Origin: a virus
Strand: one strand, 5' to 3'
Length of the DNA stretch: 64,000 bases
IMG/VR virus record: IMGVR_UViG_3300029258_004006
In this document: positions 8,070-53,812 of the stretch, piece by piece
Numbering within the stretch: position 1 is the stretch's first letter
Layout of the letters: each line of letters begins with the position of its first letter
Position numbers and translations under genes: made by a program
Notes under the pieces: generated by a model
Database searches by the model: none
Told to the model about the DNA's origin: nothing
Seen by the model: only the letters and a program-made list of their open reading frames with translations

Positions 8070-8080
8070 GATAAACTCCT

Positions 8081-8560: not shown

Positions 8561-8562
8561 CG

Positions 8563-34526: not shown

Positions 34527-35225
34527 TTAGCCATTAACCGACTCAATCAAGATATGTAGGTCATTGAGATCGGTGAATTCATGATCTGGCCTGTGGGTGC
34601 CAATATCATAAATGCGGTTGGCTCTATTTACCCACCCACTACAAATACCCGCCCGAATTGCGCCCCCTACGTCACTATATAGTGAATCACCAACATGAAT
34701 GACGTGTTCACGTCGCCAGCCAGTAAATTCAAGTGCATCCTCGAAAATGCGTGGATTGGGCTTGTAAGAACGAGAGTCCTCGGATGTTACCACCCCAGTT
34801 ACTTGAATATCATGCAGTGCCAACGCCTGATCCACATCGGCTCGGTCAGTATTTGATACTATGCAAATAGGCGTGCAAAAATTCGCCAGAAAAGACCTCA
34901 CTTCTGGCTGCAACGGTGGATTCTTACAAGACACGACTAAGGTTTTGACGTATGGAACTGGATCAAGATCAACGATACCTATCGCTGCCATCGTTTCCCG
35001 TAACGTTTGCACCTCGATCTCGAATAGCGTCAGGAAGTTGCCATCGTTATGATAGTCTACGGCCCTCAAAAACTTTTCACCCCAGGCAACACTAAGCTTG
35101 GATGGTGACAATTCGATGCCCGTATCTCTAATGATGGTGGCACATACCATCTCAACAGCGGCGCGATCACCAGCCGTGAGCGTCCCATACATATCCATGA
35201 ATACGCCATCAAATCTCGTCATCAT
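34527..35225 (-). CDS. HAD-superfamily hydrolase (haloacid-dehalogenase-like subfamily)
   Basis: Motif I FMDMYGTL, motif II IVSNTD, Lys in YKPNPRIF, and motif IV HVGDSLYSDVGGA. Confidence 0.8.
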   Translation of the reverse strand: MMTRFDGVFMDMYGTLTAGDRAAVEMVCATIIRDTGIELSPSKLSVAWGEKFLRAVDYHNDGNFLTLFEIEVQTLRETMAAIGIVDLDPVPYVKTLVVSCKNPPLQPEVRSFLANFCTPICIVSNTDRADVDQALALHDIQVTGVVTSEDSRSYKPNPRIFEDALEFTGWRREHVIHVGDSLYSDVGGAIRAGICSGWVNRANRIYDIGTHRPDHEFTDLNDLHILIESVNG

Positions 35226-35255: not shown

Positions 35256-35585
35256 TTATGGTCTGGATTCATCAATTGCCTTTTGTTCTACCACTTGCGG
35301 ACCTTTGTTGACTAGACGAATGCAACACTTTTTAAATTTCTTTCCGCTACCACAGGGACACGGGCGATTACGCAAACAATTCTTAACCTGTCTTATCTCG
35401 GTTACATCTTTATTCTGACAAGCCTTGTCATATGCTTTCTGTAAACGAGGCTTTAAAGCCCCCTCGTCTTCTTCCCCTATAAACTCTCTCGTTACCCTTT
35501 TGGCTTCTGTTATATTTCCGGCGACTTCACTTTCAGAGGTGGTACCGCCCGGACTGGTTCTGTCAACGCTGGTTTCTTCATGCAT
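35256..35585 (-). CDS. SEC-C motif (zinc-binding) small protein
   Basis: CPCGSGKKFKKCC near the C-terminus. Start is ATG 35585 or upstream 35630. Either choice overlaps the 3' end of the DpdA-like ORF out of frame. Confidence 0.6.
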   Translation of the reverse strand: MHEETSVDRTSPGGTTSESEVAGNITEAKRVTREFIGEEDEGALKPRLQKAYDKACQNKDVTEIRQVKNCLRNRPCPCGSGKKFKKCCIRLVNKGPQVVEQKAIDESRP

Positions 35586-37378
35586 TTTTGTTGTTCCTTT
35601 ATTCGTTGTTTTTCTGCTTGTTTTAACCAAATTTTCTTGGCTTTTTGCTGCAGAGTCTTCTGTACCTTGGCATTCCCTTTTCCTCTACCGGTTCGTCCCC
35701 TCTTTTTCTCCACTTCTCTTTTAGAGAATTTGTGTTTAGTGGATAATTTACCAGTTGCAGTGGCCCGCAAATCCTGGATGTATGCCAAATAGCCCTTGTT
35801 ATTTTTAACCTCTTTCCACCAATTTTGGACTAACGGAGGAAACTGACCTAAAACTGCCGGGTCATCCATATTCATATAGAGAGGCATCAATTCTAAATTA
35901 CTTCCCTCCCTAACCCCCGTCATCACTGGGTCTCCATCTTCATCCATTAAGTCCCGATCTTCACTAAACACGATATCAGGTTTTAAACTAGACTTCTTTC
36001 GAGTTTCAGCGTAATACAAACTACGAAATTCCTGAAAACCCGCATCCACCCCATATTCGATGGTGTGTTCTACATAAGCCACTAATTTGGCTGAACTAGT
36101 CCCGAAAGTCTTTTTGACCCATTGATAATAATCTTCATAATCACTTTTTTTGGCCGTCTCATGAAGTAAGTTAGTGAAATTATTTAATGCCCAGATGTTA
36201 TGAATAGCTAAATACGGACCAATTTTAGTATTCTCGCTCCAGAAGGGGTCCATAAATCCAAGAGAGGAACAAACAGGACAAGCACATGTGGTTGGCAACC
36301 GACCCATGTGAGCAAAATCATTCAGCGGAACTCCGTGGTTGTTTTTCTTGGTTTTTCCGTCTAGATGAAATTCAGTTCCAATCCGATCCGTTGAAATATA
36401 TCCAGAGGGGTGTTGGATGAGTATTTTACGGTGACCTACCCCTAGAAACTGACTGCTGGAATCGCAAGTAACCCGAATTTCCATTCGTTTAGCGAACCAC
36501 GCCATAGCAGGCATAATCTTGATTCCCGATACTCCCAGGACATGGACCCATTTGGCCTCTCTTTCTGTTGCTACCAAAAGGGCTCCTCTTAGGGCGGAAG
36601 CAAAATCTTGAGAATCCCCAGAACCTGCACTAGCCCACCCAAAGAATTGTGGGCGATCAACCACATCAATCCATCGCCTTTGATCATCTGGGGTACAACT
36701 ATGCACGATGTTAAAGACCTTTAGATCAGGTCTCATGTTAGCAGTGTAACAATCAGCGAATTGCGATTGTAAATGAGAGAGGGTAGAAAAAATATCTTTT
36801 TGTCCAAAATCAGTTCCCTCTCGGGGAGGCGCGTCCAAAATCAAAGCATAGTCAGAGGTTTGGTTTTGCCATTCAATAACTGCCTTCGGATCAAGATAAT
36901 CAACTGTTCTAACTCGAAGTTGATACCCTCCGGAATCCGTCATATGCACCAGGCCTGATGTCTTAGCCCAGTTGGTTCTCTGGTTTTTTCTAATTCCATA
37001 TGCAGCAGAACTAAGAATGATCCCGACTTGCCTGTTAATAGATCCTTCTTCACAGAAAGGGTCTAATTCATGAACTACGTCAAAATCCCGTGGGTCAAAC
37101 GGAGCCATGGAAGGGTAAGAAACAGAACTCCGACCAAAATTGTTTAAGAACACGGTGCGATCGGGAAGATCGTATATTTGAATTTGGTTGTTTAGTTTAT
37201 GATAACCCACTCCGAACCGAGAAACATGATCTATTTGTTTCTTAAACCGTACTCCAATAGACGGGTGAAAGGAAACTTCCGCTCCAGCCATGATCCAAGT
37301 AAGTCCACCCGGATCGGCGTCAGTGCCAAAAGTCCCTAGGATTTCGTCTCGTCGAGAAGTCAAAATTACTGCCTGCAT
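35510..37378 (-). CDS. dpdA: TGT-family transglycosylase, DpdA-like (7-deazaguanine DNA insertion)
   Basis: MTDSGGYQ (compare TGT DSGGFQ) and ILDAPP. Zinc site CACPVC plus His in AIHNIW about 25 aa later. About 150 aa of Lys-rich C-terminal extension. Phage context with queC and queF. Confidence 0.8.
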   Translation of the reverse strand: MQAVILTSRRDEILGTFGTDADPGGLTWIMAGAEVSFHPSIGVRFKKQIDHVSRFGVGYHKLNNQIQIYDLPDRTVFLNNFGRSSVSYPSMAPFDPRDFDVVHELDPFCEEGSINRQVGIILSSAAYGIRKNQRTNWAKTSGLVHMTDSGGYQLRVRTVDYLDPKAVIEWQNQTSDYALILDAPPREGTDFGQKDIFSTLSHLQSQFADCYTANMRPDLKVFNIVHSCTPDDQRRWIDVVDRPQFFGWASAGSGDSQDFASALRGALLVATEREAKWVHVLGVSGIKIMPAMAWFAKRMEIRVTCDSSSQFLGVGHRKILIQHPSGYISTDRIGTEFHLDGKTKKNNHGVPLNDFAHMGRLPTTCACPVCSSLGFMDPFWSENTKIGPYLAIHNIWALNNFTNLLHETAKKSDYEDYYQWVKKTFGTSSAKLVAYVEHTIEYGVDAGFQEFRSLYYAETRKKSSLKPDIVFSEDRDLMDEDGDPVMTGVREGSNLELMPLYMNMDDPAVLGQFPPLVQNWWKEVKNNKGYLAYIQDLRATATGKLSTKHKFSKREVEKKRGRTGRGKGNAKVQKTLQQKAKKIWLKQAEKQRIKEQQKCMKKPALTEPVRAVPPLKVKSPEI

Positions 37379-37389
37379 TGGTTCTTGCT

Positions 37390-38001
37390 TCAGCGACCAG
37401 AGTTAACCAGATCAATTCTAGATGATCCGGCCAGAGCACCGGTCTCCACAAGCGTAAATTCCCGAGCGGCCCTCGGTATACAAAGATTGTGTGCCGCATT
37501 ACCATCGCGATCCAAGACCGCGTGGCAATTGGGGCACGTCCATTTCCTCATACATAACGATAAAGAATCAACTTTAAACCCACAGTGATGACAAATCTTA
37601 CTGGAGGGGTAAAACCGATCCCGAACTACGAGAGATGATCCAGAGGCTTCGCATTTGTAAATTAATTGCCTGCGGAATTCACTCCAAGAGGCATCACTGA
37701 TATGGCGGGCTAGAGCGTGGTTTTTGATCATGCCGGCCACGTTTAGGTCCTCGATGCAAATCTCTTGGAACATGTTGGACAACTGAGTAATCAGTTTGTG
37801 CAGGAAGTCTTGGCGGTGATTGGTGATTCGCCAGTGATGACGAGCCAGTGTCGCTGCTGATTTCCTTCTGTTGTTAGAACCTTTTTGTTTACGGCTATGA
37901 CGGCGAGACAACTTACGAAGTTTAGTCAAACCCTTGCCTAAAGCTTTGATGGGTTTCTTCTTGATGAACCTCCGAAAAGATGGGGTCGGAAAGTCTCTCG
38001 T
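37390..38001 (-). pseudogene. tnpB: 5'-truncated tnpB remnant (IS200/IS605-type RNA-guided nuclease)
   Basis: Frame is open 38001-37393. Motifs present: KLRKLSRRHSRKQKGSNNRRK, RuvC-II ICIEDLNVAGM, zinc ribbon CHHCG...CPNC, and RuvC-III DRDGNAAHNL. The N-terminal half, including the RuvC-I Asp, is missing. Only a TTG start is available, and there is no room for a right end or omega RNA. Confidence 0.7.
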
Positions 38002-38040
38002 TTACATTTGAACCCTCCTCGGCTAATTCTGGCACCCCAT

Positions 38041-39303
38041 TTACGCAACCACGCCTTGGCACATTACTGATTTGATTGGATTCCAGTCAGCCCCAACATC
38101 CGTCAGGTAGTACACTCCCGCTCCTTCAATCTTTGTTGTACATTCATACAAATTTTTAACGGATTCAGGGATGTCCTGACCAAAAGCTGTTACAAGGCAA
38201 ATATCTTCGGAGGCTTCGGATGCCAAGAAATGGCCGTTTTTTGTTATCCCGGCGGTATTGGAAATTGCCCATTTATTTGTATCTTGGGGTGGAGTGCTCA
38301 CTAAATATTGTAAGGCTGGGATACCATTTTTGATCAAAACCGAAGCAAAATACTTCGAGCGAACCGGGAATTCCTTCATGCCCTCCCATAACCCAAAGAG
38401 CAATTCAGTATAACTAAAAGCGCAAGCCGCCACCTGGGCTTCAGTAGGATGTGGCATACGGGTAGTGTATTCTAAGAAATACATTTCCCCATCCGGAGTA
38501 ACCATACAGTTGATATCGAAAAACCCTACGTGTCCTCTTATTTTGACCTCATGTGCTCGCATGAGATCGCCAATCGGAAAGGACAGTTGATCCAATTCCG
38601 TCCAGGTCATAAATTGACCACAAGATCCTGATTCCCCAGTCATCTCAGTGGACCTGATCTGTTTAGGGTACCGTCGCTTGTATTCTTGAATCATGGTAAA
38701 AGGTTGTAGGAATTTGCCCTCTGCCCCCATGAACCCACCGAATCCAACTTCTTCACCTTCTATAAACTCTTGGTATACGGCACCCTGAAAATTAGTGGTC
38801 TTCAAAAACAAATCGCGTTTGTACAGCACCATTGTTCGGATAGAATTGCCCGGAAATCGTTGCTTAACCACATACTGATTTTCATCGAACTTAACCACTA
38901 CTTTATCACCAGGAAACATTTGTGCTTTATCTGGATCAGTAGTCGTCCGAGGAATTTTTATCCAGGGAGCCAACTTTTTGATAAACATAGCAGCAAACCC
39001 ACGATCTAGTTCTAGTCTAGCACCAAGATCAACTGCTCGAATTTGCTGAGCTTCCCCCAGATTTGAAAAATGGTCTACGTAAAAAATCAAATCCGAAGGT
39101 CGGGAAATCTCTTTTACGCCCTCCCCCAACTGCCGCCAAGTCGAATACCACCGGATAGACATTCCAGGAGGTAAAACTTTTTCTTCGTCTGGGGGTTCGG
39201 GGGCCACTACATGAAAAAACACCTCCACCGTGTCTTTAATCAAAGCAATAGCCAAAGCAAAGGGACACCAGTCCCCCACGAAATGAACTCTCCGAGTAGT
39301 CAT
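38041..39303 (-). CDS. PurD-like ATP-grasp amide ligase (divergent)
   Basis: By-eye alignment to E. coli PurD from memory. LELDRGFAAMFI~LEGSKAFTKDFL. QEFIEGEEVGF~EEFLDGEEASF. IQEYKR~SQDHKR. GFFDINCMVTPDGEMYFLEYTTRMPHPTEAQ~[30 protein letters not shown]. The N-terminal GNGGREHA is replaced by GDWCPFA. Confidence 0.7.
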   Translation of the reverse strand: MTTRRVHFVGDWCPFALAIALIKDTVEVFFHVVAPEPPDEEKVLPPGMSIRWYSTWRQLGEGVKEISRPSDLIFYVDHFSNLGEAQQIRAVDLGARLELDRGFAAMFIKKLAPWIKIPRTTTDPDKAQMFPGDKVVVKFDENQYVVKQRFPGNSIRTMVLYKRDLFLKTTNFQGAVYQEFIEGEEVGFGGFMGAEGKFLQPFTMIQEYKRRYPKQIRSTEMTGESGSCGQFMTWTELDQLSFPIGDLMRAHEVKIRGHVGFFDINCMVTPDGEMYFLEYTTRMPHPTEAQVAACAFSYTELLFGLWEGMKEFPVRSKYFASVLIKNGIPALQYLVSTPPQDTNKWAISNTAGITKNGHFLASEASEDICLVTAFGQDIPESVKNLYECTTKIEGAGVYYLTDVGADWNPIKSVMCQGVVA

Positions 39304-40034
39304 ACCAATTCCTTTGGTTTAACATCATACTCAGTTGAATCCTGGCCTTCAGCAGTCATAAAAGCCCAGTGCCTACCTCGACAAGCAAAACAACCACCAC
39401 AATGATCTGATTTGCTATTTTGAAAACAAGACACCGTCGTTTCCAATGGAGCCCCCAATGCTCTACCCAAACGAACAACTGCGGCTTTGTCTAGCCCAGC
39501 TAACGCATCGATCATTCCAAAATGGACTGCTGTTCCAGGGTGATTTTCGTGATAAGGTGTAAAATCGTTGTACAAAGAGCCGATTTCTCCACGGAATTCA
39601 CTAGAATCCATAGTATCAAACACACCCCCAAGAAATTCATTCGTAAAATCTTTAGTGGCCGGGTCATTCATTCCAGAACCCCCAGTATCAGCATCCATCT
39701 CGCCAGTGTATACTTTTTCCACACCTATCTTTTCAGCCATCGCCAAAGCAAGGGAGTATTGAAATAACTTGAACCCAGGAATGTAATTACTTCCTGGAAT
39801 TTGCAACTTGTCCAAAACATCCCGCATATCCACACGAGTCAATTTAAGACCAAGAAGACATGCAATTCTATTCTGCGATTCAACGACCTTTTCTTGTCCC
39901 CATAAATTCAGCGATAACAATAGGGGGTAGGCCCCGGCTTTCTGGAGCATAGCAGCTACCACAGTGGAATCCAAACCGCCGCTAAAAAGTACCAGAGATT
40001 TGTAAACTTGCGTATGTGTATGCGTGTGGGTCAA
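39300..40034 (-). CDS. divergent QueC-like PP-loop ATPase (second paralogue)
   Basis: PP-loop LVLFSGGLDSTV and C-terminal Cys cluster HCGGCFACRGR, as in QueC. The core QueC motifs YGQ(K/R)H, VPNRN and YPDCR are degenerate. TTG start overlaps the upstream TGA (TTGA). Confidence 0.65.
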   Translation of the reverse strand: MTHTHTHTQVYKSLVLFSGGLDSTVVAAMLQKAGAYPLLLSLNLWGQEKVVESQNRIACLLGLKLTRVDMRDVLDKLQIPGSNYIPGFKLFQYSLALAMAEKIGVEKVYTGEMDADTGGSGMNDPATKDFTNEFLGGVFDTMDSSEFRGEIGSLYNDFTPYHENHPGTAVHFGMIDALAGLDKAAVVRLGRALGAPLETTVSCFQNSKSDHCGGCFACRGRHWAFMTAEGQDSTEYDVKPKELV

Positions 40035-40750
40035 ACGAGAGCCTCCGGAGTATCTTTACTCTTCTTAACCATAGCGATGAAATGCAAACAGCATTCTATT
40101 TGATTACGGGGAAACCCCAAGTGTTCAACACAATACCGAATTACTTGATCGGAATCTAAAGATTTAGTGTGCGTCCCAGCGCGACCCATGATGGTAAGTT
40201 TACCTCCACGAGTACCAGCCACCAACTGCTCCATGGATTCCTTCACAAGTCTCCTGGTGAAAATAAACCGGGAAGTGATGTGTTCTTGGGTTAGACAATA
40301 GGCCAGTTGTTTTCCATACACTTCAGCATCAAAAGAATCGGCGTGAAATTTGTACAGGGTTTGGGGTGTAGTCGCAACACCCTGACGAATAACAGCACCA
40401 TTGCATAGGGAAGCCCTCCCCGGAATAGAATAATCTTGTTCGACGCCCCAAAGATCAAAAGCAAGGAACATAAAAGAGGGGTCGATAATCCAGCGGTGGT
40501 CCACCAGCAAAATTGAGTGGGTCAATTGCCCCTTCACTTCCACAACTACTAGTTGGCCTTGTCCCAACAGTTGTTGTGCCTGTCGGGCTAAGTGAAAGCA
40601 GTTTCCTGATTTGGCCCCGTAGGCCAAATCTTTTTGAGGATAATCCGGGGTGCCTCTTCCCTTGGCAAGAGCCGTGATCTTAGAGATGGTCTCAAATAAC
40701 CAGGTTTGAGGATTCAGTTTTTCTACGGCCTGTTGCAAAAAAGAAGTCAT
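40031..40750 (-). CDS. hypothetical protein with possible Cys-His-Asp (transglutaminase/papain-like) arrangement
   Basis: SGNCFHLA, then THSILLVDHRWIIDPS. Weak by-eye hint only. Confidence 0.55.
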   Translation of the reverse strand: MTSFLQQAVEKLNPQTWLFETISKITALAKGRGTPDYPQKDLAYGAKSGNCFHLARQAQQLLGQGQLVVVEVKGQLTHSILLVDHRWIIDPSFMFLAFDLWGVEQDYSIPGRASLCNGAVIRQGVATTPQTLYKFHADSFDAEVYGKQLAYCLTQEHITSRFIFTRRLVKESMEQLVAGTRGGKLTIMGRAGTHTKSLDSDQVIRYCVEHLGFPRNQIECCLHFIAMVKKSKDTPEALV

Positions 40751-40754
40751 GGTA

Positions 40755-41216
40755 TCACCTCAAATGAGGTTCGAGGGTGGGGAAAGTACCAAATCTATCT
40801 GATGCCCATTGTGCCCACTCCTCACTGTGTCTCTGTGCGAATGGTTGGATGGCTATGCCCCCACGAGAATTAAAACACCCAATTACTTCAACATACTTGG
40901 GGGTCAACAAACTCATCAAATCTTCGACTATGACGTTGACAACTGCTTCGTGGAAAGCTCCATGATTTCTAAAACTGCCCAGGTAAAGCTTCAGAGCTTT
41001 GCTCTCGACTAAACGCTCCTGAGGAACATAATTGATGTAGATCGTACCCCAATCAGGTTGACTGGTGACGGGACAAATACTGGAGAATTCTGAACAGATC
41101 AAGCGAATCCAAAATACCGACTCCCGTGATGGGCTGGGTACATGTTCTAGAAGTTCAGGATTGTACTGTTGAGTCTGGGAACCAAATCCGGAATTACCTG
41201 AGCCTAAATGATTCAT
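40755..41216 (-). CDS. queF: NADPH-dependent 7-cyano-7-deazaguanine (preQ0) reductase, unimodular type
   Basis: QueF motif ESKALKLYL and catalytic Cys context SSICPVTSQPDW. 153 aa. Confidence 0.85.
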   Translation of the reverse strand: MNHLGSGNSGFGSQTQQYNPELLEHVPSPSRESVFWIRLICSEFSSICPVTSQPDWGTIYINYVPQERLVESKALKLYLGSFRNHGAFHEAVVNVIVEDLMSLLTPKYVEVIGCFNSRGGIAIQPFAQRHSEEWAQWASDRFGTFPTLEPHLR

Positions 41217-41535
41217 TATCTTCTGCCAACCTTTCCACTAAACTAGCGACTCGTTTGCAAATCCATTGAATATCATGATCAGTTAACTGCGATGGATCAG
41301 CTCGACCCAGTAAAAGCAGTTTTTGAAGTCGCTGCCATATAGCTTTATGAACAGCGGACTCAACGTGTTCTGAAAGCAGACGGATACTACCGGCTTCCCC
41401 CGGAACCATGTCATTACAGGTGAATAGGCAGTCCTTGTACAGACACCCGTAGTATTCACCACGTGGATTCCATGCGAAATGATCCCGGTTACAAATTGGA
41501 CAACTAACAGCGGTCATTTCAGTCCTGATTGACAA
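41194..41535 (-). CDS. hypothetical Cys-rich (zinc-ribbon-like) protein
   Basis: SCPICNRDH...YGCLYKDCLFTC. Confidence 0.5.
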   Translation of the reverse strand: MSIRTEMTAVSCPICNRDHFAWNPRGEYYGCLYKDCLFTCNDMVPGEAGSIRLLSEHVESAVHKAIWQRLQKLLLLGRADPSQLTDHDIQWICKRVASLVERLAEDNESFRLR

Positions 41536-41568
41536 GAGGGATTGTTGTGATACATCAACTTCCTTTTA

Positions 41569-42357
41569 CTAACGATTAGGACACAAAATCAGACCACTGC
41601 GAATCTCCAGTTCTTCCAGCGTAACAGTGTAGTTCTGAAAGTTGGCCTTGCGAGGTGTATCCTGGGGCAAAAGATAAGCTGTCGGAGTTTCCCCTCTGAT
41701 CATCACGATTTTCCAAAAAGCGGAGGGAACACAGTGGGGTTCATCTGCTCCAGGTAATTGAGGCATGCTATCGTCTTCGAATAGTGGGCCGGTGAGAATC
41801 CAGGTTTCCCCATGTTCCCATGTCAGTTCTCGCACGTAGATTTCCAATCCTAGCCAAGTTCCCTGATTGAGACCAGGATACTGAGGTGCGATGTTGCTCA
41901 GATAGTTTACTTGAGAAGCATCTTTGGACCCCCGGAAAGAAGCCAATGGAGCTAGGTGACCCCGATCAAAATCACTGGCTCCCTTGTAGTCGGCTGGTTC
42001 CAAAGTTTCAGCCGGATCCAATAGAGGATCACTTCTCCACACCCGAGCTAAATCCAGTGTTCCTCTTGTTTTACTGGGGGTTAAGTGATAAGCCACCCAG
42101 TCTGCTAGCTTGGTTTCGATGTTAGCACTAAGGGCGTAAGATTCACGCACAACAATGACATTGGTTTCGGGGGTGCCGATTGGACAACCAAAAAGGAAAT
42201 GTTCACATCGAATCTGACCGGTGGGGAAGGGGATGGGAGCAACAGCCATTAAAGGCTTGGGGGTAGAAACGGTGAGCGTCAAGAATGCCCGGATGAGGAT
42301 GATGAGACAAATCGAGCACACAATCCACGTACAAGTCCGACGGGGTTTAGTCGACAT
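41569..42357 (-). CDS. DNA/RNA non-specific endonuclease (Serratia/NucA/EndoG family) with N-terminal membrane anchor or signal
   Basis: DRGHLAP...NIAPQYPGLNQGTW signature. N-terminus MSTKPRRTCTWIVCSICLIILIRAFLTLTV. Start moved to ATG 42357. Confidence 0.85.
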   Translation of the reverse strand: MSTKPRRTCTWIVCSICLIILIRAFLTLTVSTPKPLMAVAPIPFPTGQIRCEHFLFGCPIGTPETNVIVVRESYALSANIETKLADWVAYHLTPSKTRGTLDLARVWRSDPLLDPAETLEPADYKGASDFDRGHLAPLASFRGSKDASQVNYLSNIAPQYPGLNQGTWLGLEIYVRELTWEHGETWILTGPLFEDDSMPQLPGADEPHCVPSAFWKIVMIRGETPTAYLLPQDTPRKANFQNYTVTLEELEIRSGLILCPNR

Positions 42358-42886
42358 GAAGTTTCTCCCAACCGGTTTCTGGATAGTACACGCGATTGCC
42401 ATCAAAAATGTAAATTAGCATATAGTCGTCCCCCAAGTTGCTATTGGTGAAACATCTGTGTCCGCCTTCATAAATCAACAGGTAATTCCCACCGCCAATC
42501 CACATCCAGCTATCAGTCACGAAATTCCACAGATACAGTTCTTTGCTAAACCACGTGTAATAGCTGTATTTCTTGCATTTTTTATAACCCGGCGGTATTA
42601 CATATACTGAATCATCCCTGGTCACTTCTAAAACTGGAGTCGTTTCTATCTTTTGACACTTCCTCATTTTCAGACACTGTTTACAGGTAACGCGCTGCCA
42701 ATGGGGGCTGGTACGACTCTCACTTGCCCAAAACTCCAACCCACATACCGCAAAATCATACGAGCCATAATTAACTACCCTCCCGCCTTGATATCCTCGG
42801 TCTCTACGTTTCCGCTTATGTATAATCTTTCGCTTCTCTAAAGGCTGCGGGCTACTTACCGTCATCTCATTTCCTAACCGGGCCAT
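42347..42886 (-). CDS. hypothetical protein, translationally linked to the nuclease gene
   Basis: 179-aa ORF with a basic N-terminus. Overlaps the nuclease start by 11 nt. Confidence 0.55.
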   Translation of the reverse strand: MARLGNEMTVSSPQPLEKRKIIHKRKRRDRGYQGGRVVNYGSYDFAVCGLEFWASESRTSPHWQRVTCKQCLKMRKCQKIETTPVLEVTRDDSVYVIPPGYKKCKKYSYYTWFSKELYLWNFVTDSWMWIGGGNYLLIYEGGHRCFTNSNLGDDYMLIYIFDGNRVYYPETGWEKLHVD

Positions 42887-43535
42887 AGACGGTAGGATCG
42901 GTTACCTCGGCTAACCGAAATGCCTCTCGTCGTTCCACACAGGTTCCACATTTACCGCAATGAGTGACTTGTCCTTTGTAGCATGACCATGTCTCCCCGA
43001 AGGGCACGTGTAATTCATGACCGAGACGGCATATCCTGGTTTTATCATACCGAAGAAAGGGAGTCCAAATAGGTACCGGATAATAATGACACACATCAGC
43101 GATCTGAGACAAGGCTATCACAAAGGCTGGTCTACAGTCTGGGTAGATGGAGTGATCCCCAGCGTGAGCAGCATAAGCCACGGCGTCATATTTCTCATTG
43201 ATGCAACACCCAATAGCGATCGATAACATGATCATATTACGATTGGGAACTACCGTGGTCTGCATATTCTTGTCAGCATAATGCCCCTCCGGCACCACCG
43301 TTGCTGAATCCATCAAAGCGTTATCGCCCAAGAGTTGACCCACGGAACGTAAGTCTAAGATATGATGGGGACACTTATACTCGATTGCCAAAGCGGCTGC
43401 GGCTTCGATCTCCCGTCGTCCGTGTTTCTGACCGTAATTGAAGGTCAAACACTGACAAGTATGGCCTTGTGCCAATAAACTGGCCAGAAGTACAGTAGAA
43501 TCCATCCCACCGGATAGGGATACAATCACTTTCAC
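42867..43535 (-). CDS. queC: 7-cyano-7-deazaguanine synthase
   Basis: VIVSLSGGMDSTV, NYGQKHGRRE, VVPNRNMIM, HSIYPDCRPAF and SCYKGQVTHCGKCGTCVERREAF. GTG start 43535 overlaps the upstream TGA (GTGA). Confidence 0.85.
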   Translation of the reverse strand: MKVIVSLSGGMDSTVLLASLLAQGHTCQCLTFNYGQKHGRREIEAAAALAIEYKCPHHILDLRSVGQLLGDNALMDSATVVPEGHYADKNMQTTVVPNRNMIMLSIAIGCCINEKYDAVAYAAHAGDHSIYPDCRPAFVIALSQIADVCHYYPVPIWTPFLRYDKTRICRLGHELHVPFGETWSCYKGQVTHCGKCGTCVERREAFRLAEVTDPTVYGPVRK

Positions 43536-44476
43536 TGGGGTGCCTCCGCCAACATCGGAATTTCCGAGGACACGGCTCGAAGAATATCGCGTTTGTATTC
43601 CCCTGCCACATCGGGAGTCCCCAGGGACAAAGATTTGCACTGCTTTTCATAAGCGGTTTGCATCAGAAACAGGATCATCAACGTTATGGGATCAAACTTC
43701 TTAAATCCAGGTAGGGACCATACTTCTACCAGACGTAGTTGGTCCGTCTCCTGGAAATATAAGATCAACCCCAGTGGTTTGCCCTCGAATTCGAGTACCA
43801 GAGCCTCTGCGTGAATTCCGGCCAGAATCAAATAGTCCCAACGTGATTTGTTGGTCGTCGCCCATTTGGTAAGAGGGGTCTCTTTTAGAGGCGAAGTAAG
43901 ATGTTGCAATTCCCCAAACCAAAAATCTGGGGTCTTTGGCTGACTTACCACCTTGGGGCTAAACTTTCGCCAGGTCGTTCGAGTATAACGACAATCAGTA
44001 CCTTTCAAGTGGCTCTCAAAATCAGAAGCGGCAAGAGGTAAAATCAATTCTGTCTGAGTCGGAATCCCCTCCCCATACAGCAGCTTGATCAGAGATTCAA
44101 AATCGGGGCCACTTAAAGCCAGGAGGTTTCTAGTCAAGCCGAGGTTGTTCAAAGGAAAGACTAGCAGTGGAGTGTAGCCATCATCCTTCATCTCTGATAC
44201 ACGAACAATGCCACTCTGCTCCCGTTTAGCAATTAGATGAAGGATACCGGGTGGAACATCCAAATTAATAGGGTTTAGGCCCTGAATTCCCCTCATTAAA
44301 ACATCAGACCATTCTTGGTGGTGTTCAACCAAAAAACACCGGCCATCACGTTCTACTCGTGTACCTAGCTGGGGACGAGGGGGTTTATCCCGTTTAACAA
44401 CCAATCGTTTAGATCGTGTTTTCTTCTTAACGGCTGGTTTTGATGGTAATGACGACGACGTCATGTTATCTCTCAA
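43532..44476 (-). CDS. hypothetical protein, C-terminal third GNAT/FemAB-like (weak)
   Basis: ALVLEFEGKPLGLILYFQETDQLRLVEVWSLPGFKKFDPITLMILFLMQTAYEKQCKSLSLG resembles acyl/aminoacyl-transferase folds. By eye only. Confidence 0.5.
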   Translation of the reverse strand: MRDNMTSSSLPSKPAVKKKTRSKRLVVKRDKPPRPQLGTRVERDGRCFLVEHHQEWSDVLMRGIQGLNPINLDVPPGILHLIAKREQSGIVRVSEMKDDGYTPLLVFPLNNLGLTRNLLALSGPDFESLIKLLYGEGIPTQTELILPLAASDFESHLKGTDCRYTRTTWRKFSPKVVSQPKTPDFWFGELQHLTSPLKETPLTKWATTNKSRWDYLILAGIHAEALVLEFEGKPLGLILYFQETDQLRLVEVWSLPGFKKFDPITLMILFLMQTAYEKQCKSLSLGTPDVAGEYKRDILRAVSSEIPMLAEAPQ

Positions 44477-44536: not shown

Positions 44537-44830
44537 TCACGTTGTAGGAGACGACTGGTGTTGAAGTTCCCTATCCCAGAGTAAAATCTCAGACAACCAT
44601 TGCCATTGTTGTTTCGGATCGAGACGATCTAAAACCGATTGCGTTATTTCGGAACAAACAACAGTAATACCGAAGGCGAGGAATTCCTTACCATCCTGGT
44701 TCTTCACAAGTGGAACCCCCTTTCTTCCACCAGCTTTTCCATACATCTCAACGAAGGTTCCAATCACATATCCCTCAGTGAAATCATTTGAGCGGACGAT
44801 TACTTTTGAACCAACGAGTAGTTCCATCAT
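44537..44830 (-). CDS. hypothetical protein
   Basis: 97-aa ORF abutting the topoisomerase gene. Confidence 0.5.
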   Translation of the reverse strand: MMELLVGSKVIVRSNDFTEGYVIGTFVEMYGKAGGRKGVPLVKNQDGKEFLAFGITVVCSEITQSVLDRLDPKQQWQWLSEILLWDRELQHQSSPTT

Positions 44831-47055
44831 TACTTCCCTGAAATTGGAATAACGCGATGGACATGTTTACCCCTCAACATCTGCTTGTCCATCTCTATCG
44901 GAGTGTGCAACCCATCTTTTTGGACCAAATAGTTCTCTGCCGGGGCAAGAACGTCCAAGCGGAATCTCCTGAACTTCCAGGTATCAATAATCTTGGGATC
45001 ATCCCCATCCTGTACCGTGTTGATAATTGATTTTGAAGCCTTGACTTCTGAAGTACCAGAAAACATCTTCCATCCCTGCGGGACTACAGTTACGTCTTTA
45101 ATGGGATTTTTCCTGCCATTCAATTGATGGCTCCACCCGCGAAATAGTCCCTCAGAGAACCGGTGTTTCCTCAACCACTCGTAGGTCATCATGGTGGTTG
45201 AACCATCTTTATACCGGATGACTACCAATGCCTTTGGTCTAATACCAACTGCGAAAGTAATTGTCTTATTCTTAGGATACACCTTTTCAAAATAATTACT
45301 CTCAACATGGGGGTAACAGACCAGGTAATTGTCCTCGGAAATCAATAATACCAAATCATCTGCATCGGATATCAGATTCACCGGACACATGGCTTCGTGA
45401 GTGGAAAAACCAGGACACTCAAAACTGAAGTGTTGTTCCTGGTACCCATCCGAGTGTATAATGCTGAAGAACCTAGCGGCTCGAATTATATGATAATCAT
45501 TCACTTTCTTCTTGGTCTTGAAGGAAGTAAACTCATCAGTCGTAGACCTCAATTTCCCATCGACTAAAACAATTCCATAGCTAATCATCCGGGTGTCTAG
45601 ACCAGTTTCTTCGTTTCCATCAAAATCCACCCCCAGAATTTTAGTTCGCCTTTCATCTCCAAATTTCTTAGTGAATTCCTTAAGTTCACGAATGATAACA
45701 CCAGGAATATCTTGTAAATCAATTTGGTAGGATTTTAGTTCCTGCAAAAACCCATCCCGTTTGTCGGTTAAAGATTGTTTGTTCCCTTTTAGGATAGAAC
45801 GAATTTGACAAGTTAAGATGTACTCAGCCTGACGCAGGTTCAATCCAATAGACTTAAGCCACTCAATGGCCGTCTTTTCTGTCCCCTGAGTAAGCTTATC
45901 CAATTCAGTTCTATTGGCGATGACAGCTAAAACTGCTTCTACCTTTTCGATTTCCCACTGAATCTTTGTAATCCAGTCCTCAAGCCGGGTTCGAACTACC
46001 CGTCGCCGGAACCGATACCAATCTTTTAACAGCCCCTGCAGACCAGCGTACCGGATGCGAGCAGTTTTTCCATTGGCTTGGGACCGATCAAACACTGTAA
46101 ATTCATAGTGTTCTTTATACCCTCGAAGCATGGGTTCTATTTTAGTGGACAGAACCTGGGGATCATCGGCCATAATGATCAGTTTGATAGTGGTAGTGCT
46201 TTGATCCAAGACTGAGATAATCCCCTGCTCAGCCATTTCTTTAATTTCGGAGTTATCAATCCATTTATTAAGATTGGTACCCGGTGGGAATCCAGTAATT
46301 ACTAACGCTTGGGTACCATCATTCATGTCCTCGTAATGATAGTTAGCGTTATAATAACACGTTCCTTTGCCCTTCTTGTACAAGGCGGGTAGGATTTCTG
46401 GATTGGTAAGCACTCCACCCGTCGATTGGTCTGGCCCCCGAAGAACTCTTAGTAAGGATTTGGTCTTAGCCTTAGGGTTCTTAACAAATAAAATGCAAGT
46501 ACGACAAACATCGCGCAAGTTGTGAGAAGGAATCGACCCTGCCACCCCCACGGCTATACCAGTGTAACCGTTCAACAACAACAGAGGAACAGGAGCAGGG
46601 AGGACAGTTGGCTCTTTGTCGGTTTGATCATAGTTGTTTGCCATACGCACATACTGGATGTCTCGAAATAGTTCCCACCCAAACTCGGAGAGCTTAGCTT
46701 CTATGTACCTAAACGCTCCATGAGGTTCCCCATGAGGACTACCCCAATTCCCCTGCCCTTCGAACAGAGGGTATCTGGTTTTCCAGTGCTGTGTTAATAC
46801 AGCGAGAGCTTCCCCGATTGACAAATCCCCATGGGGGTGGTAATTACCCATGGTTTCACCGATAATCTTGGCCGATTTCCGGAAATAACCAGAGGGTCTC
46901 AAACCCAGTTTAAAAGCGGCATAAGCTACTCTACGTTGAACGGGTTTCAATCCATCTCTTACATCAGGAATAGCCCGTTCTTCGGCCACATACAAAGCGT
47001 AATCTCTTAACCCGGTTTCCACAACAGCGGTCAAGGGTTTTTGTTGGGTTTTCAA
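44830..47055 (-). CDS. type IIA DNA topoisomerase, A subunit (GyrA/ParC/T4 gp52-like)
   Basis: LKPVQRRVAYAAF...KSAKIIGETMGNYHPHGDLSIGEALAVLTQ, with active-site Tyr context GAFRYIEAKL. Confidence 0.9.
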   Translation of the reverse strand: MKTQQKPLTAVVETGLRDYALYVAEERAIPDVRDGLKPVQRRVAYAAFKLGLRPSGYFRKSAKIIGETMGNYHPHGDLSIGEALAVLTQHWKTRYPLFEGQGNWGSPHGEPHGAFRYIEAKLSEFGWELFRDIQYVRMANNYDQTDKEPTVLPAPVPLLLLNGYTGIAVGVAGSIPSHNLRDVCRTCILFVKNPKAKTKSLLRVLRGPDQSTGGVLTNPEILPALYKKGKGTCYYNANYHYEDMNDGTQALVITGFPPGTNLNKWIDNSEIKEMAEQGIISVLDQSTTTIKLIIMADDPQVLSTKIEPMLRGYKEHYEFTVFDRSQANGKTARIRYAGLQGLLKDWYRFRRRVVRTRLEDWITKIQWEIEKVEAVLAVIANRTELDKLTQGTEKTAIEWLKSIGLNLRQAEYILTCQIRSILKGNKQSLTDKRDGFLQELKSYQIDLQDIPGVIIRELKEFTKKFGDERRTKILGVDFDGNEETGLDTRMISYGIVLVDGKLRSTTDEFTSFKTKKKVNDYHIIRAARFFSIIHSDGYQEQHFSFECPGFSTHEAMCPVNLISDADDLVLLISEDNYLVCYPHVESNYFEKVYPKNKTITFAVGIRPKALVVIRYKDGSTTMMTYEWLRKHRFSEGLFRGWSHQLNGRKNPIKDVTVVPQGWKMFSGTSEVKASKSIINTVQDGDDPKIIDTWKFRRFRLDVLAPAENYLVQKDGLHTPIEMDKQMLRGKHVHRVIPISGK

Positions 47056-47826: not shown

Positions 47827-48151
47827 TGCGCATCACAGTCGCCGTTCCTTCCAACCCAGAGACAGTGCTTAATTCAAAAGTGTCTCCTGAGTTAAGACCT
47901 TCCATTGCAAAATTAGGTTTAGTGAGGACTCCACGAGTTACTAAAGACGTGGGATAACGAAGCGATCCACAATTCAAACAACGATTCTCTATGATAGCGA
48001 CATGTTCACAACCTCTGGCTGGCGCTCCCGCCACTTGCCCAGGACATTTAATCCATTTGTAAAGAAGATATGACCAGTAACGACCTTGCGGAAATGTGCC
48101 TGTTGCTACAATCATGTTGCACCTCTCATCGTATGAGTAGTTAGGATGCAA
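47795..48151 (-). CDS. hypothetical Cys-containing protein
   Basis: 118-aa ORF between the ClpS and exonuclease genes. Confidence 0.5.
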   Translation of the reverse strand: MHPNYSYDERCNMIVATGTFPQGRYWSYLLYKWIKCPGQVAGAPARGCEHVAIIENRCLNCGSLRYPTSLVTRGVLTKPNFAMEGLNSGDTFELSTVSGLEGTATVMRIDGEGLWWKL

Positions 48152-48470
48152 TTTTCTCTAAGGTCGCATCCATAGAACCCTGACATCCCAAAACACGATC
48201 ATCAGCCCCATAGGAAGTGATTTGATCTTTCTTCCACTCGGCTTTTTCAAAGTGACTACGATAGACAGCCGCTTTACCGGTCTCATCCACTAGCTTCGCT
48301 AGTTGAAAAGCTTCTTCCCTACTGTGACCACAGGTTTCAGCCAGCATCCGAACCACATACTCATACGTGTGGTAGTCATCGTTCCACAGGATAACGGTCC
48401 ATTCGGGAGATAACTGGGTTTCAACAACGGGAACGGGAGCGAGAGTGGGGGTGGCGGCTGATGAAGTCAT
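48141..48470 (-). CDS. clpS: ClpS-like ATP-dependent Clp protease adaptor
   Basis: Alignable end to end with E. coli ClpS from memory. VILWNDDYHTYEYVV~VILVNDDYTPMEFVI. AFQLAKLVDETGKA~ATQLMLAVHYQGKA. ATLEKI~CTLEKA. Confidence 0.85.
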   Translation of the reverse strand: MTSSAATPTLAPVPVVETQLSPEWTVILWNDDYHTYEYVVRMLAETCGHSREEAFQLAKLVDETGKAAVYRSHFEKAEWKKDQITSYGADDRVLGCQGSMDATLEKIAS

Positions 48471-52026: not shown

Positions 52027-52830
52027 TCACCTCGTACTGGTTGTTCCACTTTTCAGAATACGAAATGGAGGGGTTGTTATGCCCTTTGGATAATACCGCG
52101 AGAGAATAGAATAGAATTGATCTTCATCAGCGTCCCCCTCAATTCTTTCCCCGCCCTTAGAGGTAGTCATTGTGAATGTACCCACATCGGGGTGTTGTAT
52201 CTCGATTATGCCATCGAAGAAAACGATGGTTGTGTTTTCTATGGCCATGTCGGCGATATGAATGGCCAGGGGTACCATATCATCAGGGAAGAGTCCAATG
52301 ATACGGTAGATTCCAAGAGAGAGCGTTTCAATCCCTGAGCCTAGTTGCTTTTCTCCCTGCGGTCCAACCACCTGAGAGTGAGAAGCAAATGCACGGGTAA
52401 ACCGGCGGGAAGGAAAAGTGGTGCCATCCTCTCGAATAGGCTCCACCAGTTTAAAGCTCTCTTCCAACTCGGCATCCGTAATATCTGGCTCGTAAAACCG
52501 GGCTCTGAGTTCTTCACTATCAGTGGAGTAAAGATCATACTGAATCGTCACTTCAGGAATTTCTTGATCAGGTTCAAGTGGAACTCGATCAAGTGTACAA
52601 CGATAAATCTGCACCCCCTTATCGTCGGTGGTTCTTCCAACTGATACACGATAGGTCGGCACCAAGCAATACTCAATTATCTTCTTGAGTAAATGAGCGG
52701 GGTTATCCTCCACCACCCTTGCTTCTGAACGGCTCAGAATCATTCCAGAATCCGTCAACAACCATGGAACTAAAATCATTGCATTTCCTACCCTATAGAG
52801 AGATAAACCCGACAGATTTATACCATTCAA
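52027..52830 (-). CDS. hypothetical protein
   Basis: 267-aa ORF. Confidence 0.6.
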   Translation of the reverse strand: MNGINLSGLSLYRVGNAMILVPWLLTDSGMILSRSEARVVEDNPAHLLKKIIEYCLVPTYRVSVGRTTDDKGVQIYRCTLDRVPLEPDQEIPEVTIQYDLYSTDSEELRARFYEPDITDAELEESFKLVEPIREDGTTFPSRRFTRAFASHSQVVGPQGEKQLGSGIETLSLGIYRIIGLFPDDMVPLAIHIADMAIENTTIVFFDGIIEIQHPDVGTFTMTTSKGGERIEGDADEDQFYSILSRYYPKGITTPPFRILKSGTTSTR

Positions 52831-53812
52831 CAGTAGAGATAACTCCTGCTGAGAGGGGCGTCTTTGGTTGATACCCCAATTGAAGTTTAGCTTTACTAAT
52901 GTCGGCTATGTAATAAGTTACTTCACCACGAAGAGGATCAGTGAACGTAACGACTGGTTCTTTACCAATGGAGAGACTAAGTAAATTCACCAGATCCCAC
53001 AAGGTACTACCCCGCCCATAGGCAAGGTTGAACGTAGCACCAACTACAGTGCCATGTCTTTTATGATTGGCCAGAAGTGCTCGCATTGCTCTGGTCAACC
53101 CATCAATGGCGTCATCGATGTAAGTAAAGTCCAAAGTCTTGTTTTTTCCAAAGACTTCGATTGGTTCTCCCTTACTAATTCTCTTAGCAAAGAGGGGGAT
53201 AACTCGTTCCATTCGTTCTAAGTCATTGTCATATCGACCATAGACGTTACTGAAACGAACGATAACAAAAGGCAGATCGTAACTCTTATGACAAGCATGG
53301 AGCATAGCCTCTCCAGCTAGTTTGGTAGCCGAGTAGGGACTTTCCTGAGCTTGAATATGAGCGTCGTCTTCCCGAACAGACCTCACTTCAAATTCTGGCT
53401 TATTTCCATACACCTCCCGGGAACTAGCAAAGACAACCGGCGTGTTATGACGACGACACGCCTCGGCCACCCGATAAATAGACATGAAATTAGACACTGC
53501 TCTATCAGGATATTCTACTAATTCGTGAACTTTGGCATACGCGGCTAAATGAATCACCACGTCAGCCCATTCCATTAGGGGGCTGAGATCAAAAGAGGAC
53601 TCAGCAATATCGCCTCTGTAAAAATCTTTTACGACAGCGGATTGGGATAAATCCCACCAAGGAAAACTGTTTTTATCGATACCAATAGCCTGGTATTTCT
53701 CCGGACCTTGTTGTTCCAACCACCGAATAAGGTTACTACCAATTTGCCCGCTAGCCCCGGTTATCACTACTTTAGTTGGTTCCACTACATTCACCCTTAA
53801 ATAGCGCCCCAT
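52793..53812 (-). CDS. NAD-dependent sugar-nucleotide epimerase/dehydratase (extended SDR)
   Basis: Rossmann motif VVITGASGQIGSNL and catalytic YSATK. Start set at ATG 53812. Confidence 0.85.
   Translation of the reverse strand: MGRYLRVNVVEPTKVVITGASGQIGSNLIRWLEQQGPEKYQAIGIDKNSFPWWDLSQSAVVKDFYRGDIAESSFDLSPLMEWADVVIHLAAYAKVHELVEYPDRAVSNFMSIYRVAEACRRHNTPVVFASSREVYGNKPEFEVRSVREDDAHIQAQESPYSATKLAGEAMLHACHKSYDLPFVIVRFSNVYGRYDNDLERMERVIPLFAKRISKGEPIEVFGKNKTLDFTYIDDAIDGLTRAMRALLANHKRHGTVVGATFNLAYGRGSTLWDLVNLLSLSIGKEPVVTFTDPLRGEVTYYIADISKAKLQLGYQPKTPLSAGVISTVEWYKSVGFISL

Follow-up and report, generated by a model that had tools for sequence, protein, structure and literature searches.

What base does a large phage build into its DNA when the genes for preQ1 stand in one string with two further enzymes that resemble ligases? 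The question is raised by a metagenomic phage genome, IMG/VR record IMGVR_UViG_3300029258_004006, of which one stretch (the window; 64 kb out of a contig of ~262 kb) was analysed. At 34.5-44.5 kb, on the minus strand, lies an island in which QueC, QueF and a relative of the tRNA-guanine transglycosylases (TGTs) are joined by a PurD-like ATP-grasp protein and by a second, divergent member of the QueC family, here called QueC2. The answer towards which the evidence leans slightly is an anti-restriction island, by which the phage replaces guanine in its own DNA with a 7-deazaguanine base, and this base is probably elaborated beyond preQ1. By analogy with known enzymes the elaboration is most likely an amide ligation, in which the ATP-grasp protein and the remodelled QueC would extend the C7 side chain beyond the step that yields preQ1-type DNA.

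All substantial open reading frames (ORFs) of the window are on the minus strand. Its G+C content is 44-50%, with composition unbroken at the island. An earlier interpretation made from the letters alone (the sequence-only reading) had listed co-oriented ORFs, all of which were found where it had placed them; it had overlooked a TnpB fragment and a NucA-type nuclease inside the string. The genes of the island, all on the minus strand, are as follows.

34527-35225, minus: haloacid dehalogenase (HAD)-superfamily hydrolase (PF00702)
35510-37378, minus: TGT-superfamily transglycosylase, predicted to be DpdA-like (invariant motifs, profile match to 1iq8)
37390-37929, minus: remnant of a truncated TnpB (IS200/IS605; partial match to NF038281)
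38041-39303, minus: PurD-like ATP-grasp protein, putative amide ligase (TIGR00877 below cut-off, PurD fold)
39300-40034, minus: QueC2, a remodelled QueC-family PP-loop ATPase (Pfam QueC), predicted amide ligase with an altered substrate
40031-40750, minus: orf239, the 'Cys/His ORF' of the sequence-only reading; an ORFan, with no relatives
40755-41216, minus: unimodular QueF (preQ0 to preQ1, NADPH-dependent; TIGR03139, Pfam QueF, motifs)
41194-41535, minus: orf113 (called as 107 aa, orf107); no significant family match
41569-42405, minus: DNA/RNA non-specific endonuclease of the NucA/Serratia type (called as 262 aa; PF01223)
42347-42886, minus: orf179 (called as 172 aa, orf172, 42347-42865); no family assignment, a weak match to phrog_30413
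42867-43535, minus: canonical QueC (7-carboxy-7-deazaguanine, CDG, to preQ0; Pfam QueC, TIGR00364, motifs)
43532-44476, minus: orf314 (called as 310 aa, start 44464); an ORFan, possibly a CelD/FemAB-like GNAT protein

Genes for a preQ1-type base

Are the core genes what they appear to be? A phage 7-deazaguanine island with a canonical QueC, a unimodular QueF and a TGT-family protein had been proposed from the letters alone, and each of these assignments stands. QueC scores 198.6 bits with Pfam QueC and 183 bits with TIGR00364 (cut-off 150), and it carries SGGMDS, YGQKH, VPNRN, YPDC and the Cys4 zinc motif (SCY...CGKCGTC); score and motifs are those of a preQ0 synthase. The published signature of canonical QueC consists of SGGxDS, YxQxHxxE, VPxRN, YPDC and C(x)8CxxCxxC (2026 study, PMC13329287). 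The window protein departs from it in one detail, as YGQKHGRRE has its Glu one residue later than the consensus.

QueF passes the TIGR03139 (QueF-II) cut-off with 139 bits (cut-off 86.9) and scores 112 bits with Pfam QueF. The catalytic-Cys motif CPVTSQPD is found within SICPVTSQPD and the NADPH motif ESKALKLY within VESKALKLY, as in the unimodular NADPH-dependent preQ0 reductases. It is the motif E(S/L)K(S/A)hK(L/Y)(Y/F/W) that distinguishes QueF from the amidinotransferase QueF-L. With these two motifs, the window QueF predicts preQ1 and not an archaeosine-type product. Phages that encode QueF carry dPreQ1 (PMC12028318).

The third protein, of 622 aa, is divergent. Taken alone it has no Pfam match and scores only 18 bits with TgtA; it has no PADLOC match and, by tblastn at E<=1e-3, no match to Cellulophaga or Campylobacter phages. 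A tblastn search finds 20 homologues, 18-26% identical to it, in phages of ~200-260 kb. An alignment of the window protein with five of these homologues (A4) has DSGG(F/Y)Q, LD, D306, C365xC367PxC370 and H393 invariant; the CxCxxC...H site and DSGGYQ had been noticed earlier. The profile built from it matches the archaeosine TGT 1iq8 (E=7.6e-10 over 326 positions) and then dozens of bacterial TGT entries. With the DSGGFQ loop, the substrate Asp of LD, the catalytic Asp and the zinc site all present, the protein is by its motifs a member of the TGT superfamily. The window protein and its homologues also end in a Lys/Arg-rich C-terminal tail, which fits nucleic-acid binding. The homologue in Achromobacter phage Motura sits between QueC, an AsnB-like gene, QueE and FolE (GTP cyclohydrolase), a gene set interpreted as a deazaguanine DNA-incorporation system (PMC7824862). 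Phage context, basic tail and the Motura precedent together suggest DNA as the probable substrate of the transglycosylase.

When all window ORFs were searched by phmmer, with queries from phages, no FolE, QueD, QueE, ArcS-like or AsnB-like protein turned up; for the first three this agrees with the sequence-only reading.

A remodelled QueC

Is the second QueC also a preQ0 synthase? QueC2 keeps the PP-loop (SGGLDS) and the zinc motif C(x)8CxxCxxC, and scores 77 bits with Pfam QueC. As a canonical QueC it fails, both by score (TIGR00364, 53 bits vs 150) and by residues: IPGFK stands instead of VPxRN, WGQEK instead of YxQxH, and YPDC is absent. The QueC mutations Y35A, R99A and Y131A abolish function (PMC13329287). 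Because R99 and Y131 are lost, QueC2 is not a preQ0 synthase. It fails also as a QatC or Cap9 protein, being 244 aa long with RN and YxDC absent; the scores are 39.7 bits vs 280 for the QatC model NF041925, 42 bits for the PADLOC QatC model, over the PP-loop region only, and 27.7 bits for the Cap9-type QueC model. Matches to QueC, QatC and Cap9 entries in the PDB reach only 1e-5 to 3e-4, which leaves the protein about equidistant from all three. The nearest phage relative has ~26% identity, and none is close.

By these residues QueC2 is an ATP-pyrophosphatase with a rebuilt substrate pocket, and its predicted role, by analogy, is amide ligation on an altered substrate. The earlier description of a second, divergent QueC/PP-loop ATPase is borne out, with PP-loop and zinc site kept, catalytic residues lost and the equivalog failed. 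Among eight QueC-family proteins of related loci, the change from RN to (F/Y)K is shared only with the protein encoded at 7913-8713 of locus L017, the other jumbo-size contig that combines a TGT of the window's family (A4) with PurD-like ligases.

Could QueC2 and orf239 be the two halves of a split Gat-QueC? This was rejected, as orf239 has neither an N-terminal Cys nor a glutamine amidotransferase match, and Gat-QueC domains retain the RN motif whereas QueC2 does not.

A PurD-like ligase

The ATP-grasp protein resembles PurD at a distance. The purD model TIGR00877 matches with E=1e-9 but at 37.7 bits vs a cut-off of 288; PurD 2yw2 of the PDB matches residues 94-404 (E=3e-5), and the sole Pfam match is GARS_C (E=0.052). 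Identity to PurD is 15-17%. Both the TIGR00877 and the PDB alignment start at residue 94; the N-terminal region before it does not match PurD in sequence, Pfam finds neither GARS_N nor GARS_A, and conservation is poor in the N-terminal columns of the family alignment. The N-terminal region of PurD is the part that binds phosphoribosylamine.

An AlphaFold2 model built with ten relatives (pLDDT 78.7, pTM 0.81) gives 597 Foldseek matches in the PDB at E<=0.001. The top 50 listed are all ATP-grasp enzymes with PurD first. The best 15 are all glycinamide ribonucleotide synthetases, matched over full length at E about 1e-17, ahead of biotin carboxylases, PurK, PurT and PylC. The three domains and the Lys and Glu ligands of the fold are present. 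Conserved in the family are K138, E179-E185, E207, K209, D263, E278 and R282, and the motifs QEFIEGEE, EYK, GESG and LEYTxRxxxPTE correspond to EEFLEGEE, DHKR, NTGGMG and LEFNVRxGDPE of PurD. The protein is not PurD, though PurD-like in fold, since the equivalog and the GARS_N/A/C set of PurD both fail. By analogy its chemistry is probably PurD-like, in that an acyl-phosphate of a small carboxylate would be attacked by an amine. The sequence-only reading had named it a PurD-like amide ligase outside ordinary purine synthesis. With the equivalog failed and no GARS_N this view is upheld, and the ordinary purine gene that it had allowed for among the extra ORFs is, for the ATP-grasp protein, not what homology finds.

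The family is rare. No match was found by tblastn in 50,697 phage records, nor by megablast of the 9 kb region in the same records; a word-indexed search of 5.8 billion proteins returned the query and one relative only. Among 1.84 billion representatives scanned with HMMER, seven proteins (clusters) reach E<1e-60, and the next scores are at 1e-24 and below. All seven clusters are on phage-like contigs, and the window protein itself is present on contigs of up to 262,650 bp.

Gene packing

The genes had been described as mostly start/stop-overlapping. This is so at three junctions, where orf314/QueC, orf239/QueC2 and QueC2/ATP-grasp overlap by 4 nucleotides. Spacers of 1-4 nucleotides separate QueC from orf172 and QueF from orf239, orf172 overlaps the nuclease gene by 11 nucleotides and orf107 overlaps QueF by 23. 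Larger gaps are found elsewhere: between nuclease and orf107 (51 nucleotides), between the ATP-grasp gene and the TnpB remnant, and ahead of the HAD gene. A promoter and terminator scan gave nothing over shuffled expectation, and there are no convincing internal promoters or terminators.

Neighbours of the ligase in other phages

What company does the ligase keep in other genomes? Contexts were read for all seven members of the core family, that is, the window and loci L001, L007, L008, L009, L010 and L011, and for three outgroup loci with the best scores, L016, L015 and L017.

L001: Gat-QueC fusion, second QueC-like gene, glycosyltransferase family 2 (GT2) gene, radical S-adenosylmethionine (SAM) gene, phosphoribosyltransferase-like gene
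L007: stand-alone ArcS-like DUF5591 protein with PCxxxKPYxSxxH, QueC-like gene, gene related to PF13480, canonical QueC
L009: Gat-QueC, PurC-like gene, glycosyltransferase-like genes
L010 (7 kb): radical-SAM gene that resembles the one in L016, the latter a match to QueE of Motura
L008 and L011: contexts short of 7 kb
L016 (138 bits to the core family): QueE-like gene, QueC, 473-aa QueC fusion
L015 (127 and 114 bits to the core family, two tandem ligases): Pfam-positive TGT of the window's family, GT2, methyltransferase
L017 (110 bits to the core family): FolE, TGT of the window type, two QueC-family genes, two PurD-like genes, three paralogues of a family F, lysine-2,3-aminomutase-like radical SAM enzyme

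QueC-family genes are present in four of the five core contexts of at least 7 kb (window, L001, L007 and L009; the fifth is L010). The three outgroup loci continue the pattern with two QueC genes in L016, a TGT in L015, and FolE, a TGT and two QueC-family genes in L017. TGTs of the A4 type are found among the other ligase loci in L015 and L017 only, where they adjoin PurD-like ligases. As a background rate, a QueC-family query matches 141 of the 50,697 phage records by tblastn. The association with deazaguanine genes is strong for the core ligase family and its nearest relatives, and is not shared by all viral PurD-like ligases; it favours a functional link of the ligase to the deazaguanine genes. 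In all viral PurD-like proteins examined, GARS_A is weak and GARS_N absent.

Of all the loci, L017 1-20699 (IMGVR_UViG_3300045988_171246, 209 kb) is most like the island; it also encodes a DUF7487 protein. One of its two QueC-family genes has RN changed to YK, and its family F is marked by a C-terminal DLG...YK motif. The aminomutase-like enzyme adjoins the ligases, which fits amino-acid substrates.

A few observations on the other loci may be added. L007 encodes at 12700-13551 the stand-alone DUF5591 protein, 283 aa long, with the ArcS-type motif PCAADKPYPSPLH; it adjoins the two QueC-family genes and the ATP-grasp gene, and this setting suggests an archaeosine-type branch in this phage. In L015 (4998-9275 and 12788-14422) the two PurD-like ligase genes are near each other, with two ORFs between them, and stand with the methyltransferase, GT2 and TGT genes. 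Fusions of a uracil-DNA glycosylase (UDG) domain with DNA polymerase A lie directly upstream of the ligase region in L001 (1-2896), L007 (5256-7961), L010 (1203-4007) and L016 (5194-8004), and the fusion of L001 holds an intein with a LAGLIDADG endonuclease.

A predicted pathway

How might these enzymes act together? In a first tier, supported by family membership, QueC converts CDG, supplied by the host or by genes outside the window, to preQ0, and QueF reduces preQ0 to preQ1, the 7-aminomethyl base; the basic-tailed TGT-superfamily enzyme, whose catalytic motifs are intact, would exchange guanine in DNA for the deazaguanine base. A second tier, composed of orf239, QueC2 and the ATP-grasp protein and translationally coupled downstream of QueF, would extend the C7 side chain via amide bonds. 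By analogy with PurD, the ATP-grasp protein would join a small carboxylate, which it first phosphorylates, to a primary amine. The carboxylate would probably be that of an amino acid, such as glycine; as for the amine, neighbouring genes in the window make only one, the aminomethyl group of preQ1. QueC2, if it works like QueC, Cap9 and QatC, would adenylate a carboxylate, either that of CDG or that of the new aminoacyl group, and pass it to an amine other than ammonia. The product might be an N-acyl or aminoacyl preQ1-type base, or an N-substituted 7-amido base, with either the free base or DNA as substrate in both cases.

Such chemistry has precedents. Cap9 and QatC use the QueC scaffold to join CDG to amines that are not ammonia, and in QatC the pocket has been rebuilt (PMC13329287). 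CmoY attaches glycine to phage DNA through a carboxyl handle (PMC12783734). These precedents make amide extension plausible.

A broader proposal, put forward tentatively, is that a set of uncultivated phages decorates 7-deazaguanine in DNA with amino-acid or short peptide-like chains, by means of a dedicated clade of PurD-like ATP-grasp ligases and of remodelled QueC-family PP-loop ligases. Relatives would add FemAB/CelD-like transferases and an aminomutase-like enzyme, and the product in the window would be an aminoacyl-preQ1 (e.g. glycyl-preQ1) or an N-substituted 7-amido base. In related loci with Gat-QueC or ArcS-like genes, the acceptor may vary among phages, or the ligase may extend a substituent that a QueC paralogue has installed.

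Weighing the alternatives

The proposed second tier has several points against it. Its steps beyond preQ1 are inferred from context. In the ATP-grasp protein, an invariant Thr replaces the Asn of the E-x-N metal motif of PurD, so that its catalysis is putative. The lower-scoring 20 of 21 IMG/VR PurD-like loci are without QueC, TGT or QueF within 10 kb, and the wider viral PurD-like clade is therefore not dedicated to deazaguanines. Loci L001, L007 and L009 share several partner families and a UDG-PolA neighbour; they represent one lineage and are not independent, which leaves about three or four independent lineages overall. QueF is absent from every related locus, with Gat-QueC or ArcS-like genes instead, and preQ1 cannot serve each of these phages as the amine acceptor. 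Partner families B, C, D and F of other loci are undetectable in the window by hhalign and hmmsearch (B-G and an expanded F were tried, all non-significant). Lastly, orf239 and orf314 are ORFans, and the TnpB remnant and the nuclease make the string partly mosaic. The earlier suggestion that the amine of preQ1 or the carboxylate of CDG is derivatised fares unevenly on this evidence: the neighbours of the ligase favour a link, but the idea of preQ1 joined to an amino acid is weakened by the restriction of QueF to the window.

Might the island stop at preQ1? QueC, QueF and the transglycosylase would then make plain dPreQ1 (or dPreQ0), and the ATP-grasp protein, QueC2 and the ORFans would be unrelated cargo in a block of early or nucleotide-metabolism genes. 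This is unlikely, though it draws on the mosaic string, the two ORFans and the 20 lower-scoring loci just described; in addition, the ligase adjoins DNA polymerase in L001, L007, L010 and L016, and the synteny could reflect a shared replication module. It accounts poorly for the stop/start overlaps of orf239, QueC2 and ATP-grasp right after QueF, which indicate co-expression, and QueC2, a deazaguanine-family enzyme with a remodelled pocket, is a poor candidate for cargo. The closest relatives of the ATP-grasp protein also co-occur with QueC or TGT in genomes as different as jumbo contigs of 262 kb and 209 kb and contigs of ~50-120 kb.

Could the target be something other than DNA? QueC2 might couple CDG to a protein N-terminus or to a metabolite, with the ATP-grasp protein modifying the same target, perhaps a factor of the phage or of its host; in a counter-defence version, QatABCD or type IV CBASS might have their substrates drained or mimicked. 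QueC-family enzymes are proven amine ligases in defence systems, the about equal PDB scores of QueC2 for QatC, Cap9 and QueC and its 42 bits with the PADLOC QatC model point the same way, and type IV CBASS is likewise defined by a pair of QueC-like and TGT-like proteins (Cap9/Cap10). The proposal is nevertheless improbable. The QatC equivalog fails (39.7 vs 280 bits) and the N- and C-terminal extensions of QatC are missing (244 vs ~400 aa); Cap9 keeps RN and YxDC, whereas QueC2 is without both; the TGT-like protein keeps catalytic Asp, zinc site and basic tail and has no PADLOC match; and no partner with an N-terminal Gly is found nearby.

It is very improbable that the ATP-grasp protein is a divergent phage PurD that boosts the purine (GTP) supply, with an indirect tie to deazaguanine: PurD is its best match by sequence and structure, L009 also has a PurC-like SAICAR synthase gene and GTP precedes CDG, but the TIGR00877 score (37.7 vs 288 bits), the lack of GARS_N and GARS_A and an N-terminal region without PurD sequence match speak against it, no other pur genes are found among the window ORFs scanned, and in a family of 7 clusters only, the four members read at the 20 kb scale (window, L001, L007, L009) adjoin QueC-family genes. 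For the coupling of the genes and the pattern of neighbours, each of these three explanations is a poorer fit than an amide-ligase tier acting on a deazaguanine base in DNA.

Comparison with known systems

The island is of a known kind, DpdA-type deazaguanine modification in a phage, with a predicted and undescribed tier of hypermodification. How does it compare with systems already described? Phage preQ1 systems with a methyl- or formyl-transferase likewise encode QueC, QueF and a TGT together with an extra enzyme that acts on the preQ1 amine. In the window the extra enzymes are the PurD-like ATP-grasp protein and the remodelled QueC, which would imply a larger, amide-linked substituent, and the transglycosylase is too divergent for Pfam TGT and groups with those of the jumbo phages Motura, NCTB, vB_PpuM and PhiXhv. 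Motura (PMC7824862; genome ~220 kb) has the same TGT-like family amid QueC, QueE and FolE. There the extra ATP-dependent amide-forming enzyme is AsnB-like, and no PurD-like ATP-grasp, QueF or QueC2 is present in the stretch examined, whereas the window is without FolE and QueE.

The best functional precedent is the CmoA/CmoX/CmoY pathway to 5-glycylcarboxymethylcytosine in Synechococcus phage S-B43 (PMC12783734), in which an ATP-dependent amide ligase extends a handle-bearing base by one amino acid, namely glycine. The base there is cytosine rather than 7-deazaguanine, the ligase is AsnB-like and AMP-forming, with no ATP-grasp enzyme, and the chemistry is proven where that of the window is predicted. 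Cap9 of type IV CBASS and QatC of QatABCD (PMC13329287, PMC13279940) share with QueC2 the use of the QueC scaffold for a non-ammonia amine, as predicted for QueC2, with PP-loop and zinc site kept, and QatC shares a remodelled pocket. Both serve in bacterial defence, with the N-termini of proteins as their targets; QueC2 is phage-encoded, stands beside QueF and a ligase, and is without the RN and YxDC of Cap9. PurD (glycinamide ribonucleotide synthetase) has the fold of the window ligase over all domains and its ATP-grasp motifs. It differs in the low identity, the failed equivalog, the unmatched N-terminus and the Asn of E-x-N, which is Thr in the window protein, and the window family is known from phage contigs only.

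Eight 7-deazaguanine DNA bases are known, with methyl-, formyl- and amidino-level groups as their largest substituents. A literature search found no work tying an ATP-grasp or PurD-like ligase to phage 7-deazaguanine, and neither the 2023 catalogue (eight deazaguanine bases) nor the 2026 QueC-family survey mentions ATP-grasp enzymes. If the broader proposal is true, its product would be a new class of hypermodified purine in DNA. With an amide-ligase tier, natural DNA chemistry would come to include aminoacylated purines, a parallel to the recently discovered glycyl-carboxymethylcytosine, and a function would be assigned to a phage-specific clade of PurD-like ligases and to a new QueC subtype, both of which could become enzymes for site-directed DNA functionalisation. 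The base would also be relevant to defences, by restriction or by glycosylases, in which deazaguanines are sensed. The reach of deazaguanine chemistry in DNA can be addressed by a small direct experiment, as a host such as E. coli supplies CDG and preQ0.

Other genes of the island and its flanks

What of the remaining genes? For orf239, the word-indexed search of 5.8 billion proteins returned only the protein itself, and PDB, Pfam, PHROG and PADLOC gave no match. Its single-sequence AlphaFold2 model is unusable (pLDDT 36). In sequence, Cys51...His78...Asp84/90 is a candidate triad that resembles those of the arylamine N-acetyltransferase (NAT)/transglutaminase type. The sequence-only reading had listed this ORF among the genes that the known scheme leaves unexplained; it has no detectable relative anywhere, and nothing ties it to the pathway.

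The protein encoded by orf314 likewise finds only itself among the 5.8 billion and has no phage tblastn match. Its sole Pfam match is Acetyltransf_6 (PF13480, E=0.032) in the C-terminal half, residues 222-296. The earlier label 'GNAT/Fem-like' has this one match behind it, at a score below the cut-off (14.8 vs 22 bits). In L007 a PF13480-related gene occupies the same position, directly upstream of canonical QueC, and the L009 homologue passes the PF13480 threshold; a comparison of orf314 with families F and G by hhalign was not significant. The proposal that orf239 and orf314 are orthologues of the conserved partner families was dropped, as the profile comparisons were all non-significant. 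Of the two smaller ORFs, orf179 matches phrog_30413 (function unknown; E=0.0041, 18.2 bits) and neither Pfam nor PADLOC, and orf113 has no significant match in PHROGs, Pfam or PADLOC.

The HAD protein (34527-35225) scores 60 bits with PF00702, and all its NCBIfam equivalog matches are below cut-off. The earlier assignment holds at the superfamily level, but nothing links the gene to the pathway. An ORF at 35256-35630 (minus strand), which runs in a different frame from the transglycosylase gene and overlaps its 3' end, has a significant SEC-C motif (CPCGSGKKFKKCC, E=1.6e-8). The motif itself lies in the 284-nucleotide gap before the HAD gene, and this ORF is not among the calls of the metagenome gene caller.

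The TnpB fragment, flanked by the ATP-grasp gene and the transglycosylase gene, scores 174 bits with NF038281 (cut-off 425) over model positions 207-355 of 360 only, and is matched also by Pfam Cas12f1-like_TNB and OrfB_IS605. It retains RuvC-II/III and the zinc ribbon and has no N-terminal half; as a full-length TnpB has ~360-400 aa with RuvC, it is a remnant. No omega-RNA-like element was found near it by Rfam, which has no family in the window at all, and no tRNAs were found in the window. The endonuclease (41569-42405) scores 137 bits with PF01223 and has a hydrophobic N-terminal segment, CTWIVCSICLIILIRAFLTLTV. It could degrade unmodified host DNA, or be exported.

The flanks of the island hold structural, replication and sugar-nucleotide genes. 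Sugar-nucleotide and glycosylation genes on the minus strand encode an NAD-dependent epimerase/dehydratase (52793-53848), a UDP-GlcNAc 2-epimerase (60222-61328) and a 725-aa protein with two glycosyltransferase domains (61588-63765). Glycosyltransferases also adjoin ligase and QueC genes in L001, L007, L009 and L015, and so a glycosylation of the modified base is conceivable. Upstream of the island, on the same strand, are genes for a 741-aa topoisomerase IV/GyrA-like subunit (44830-47055) and a ClpS homologue (48141-48470).

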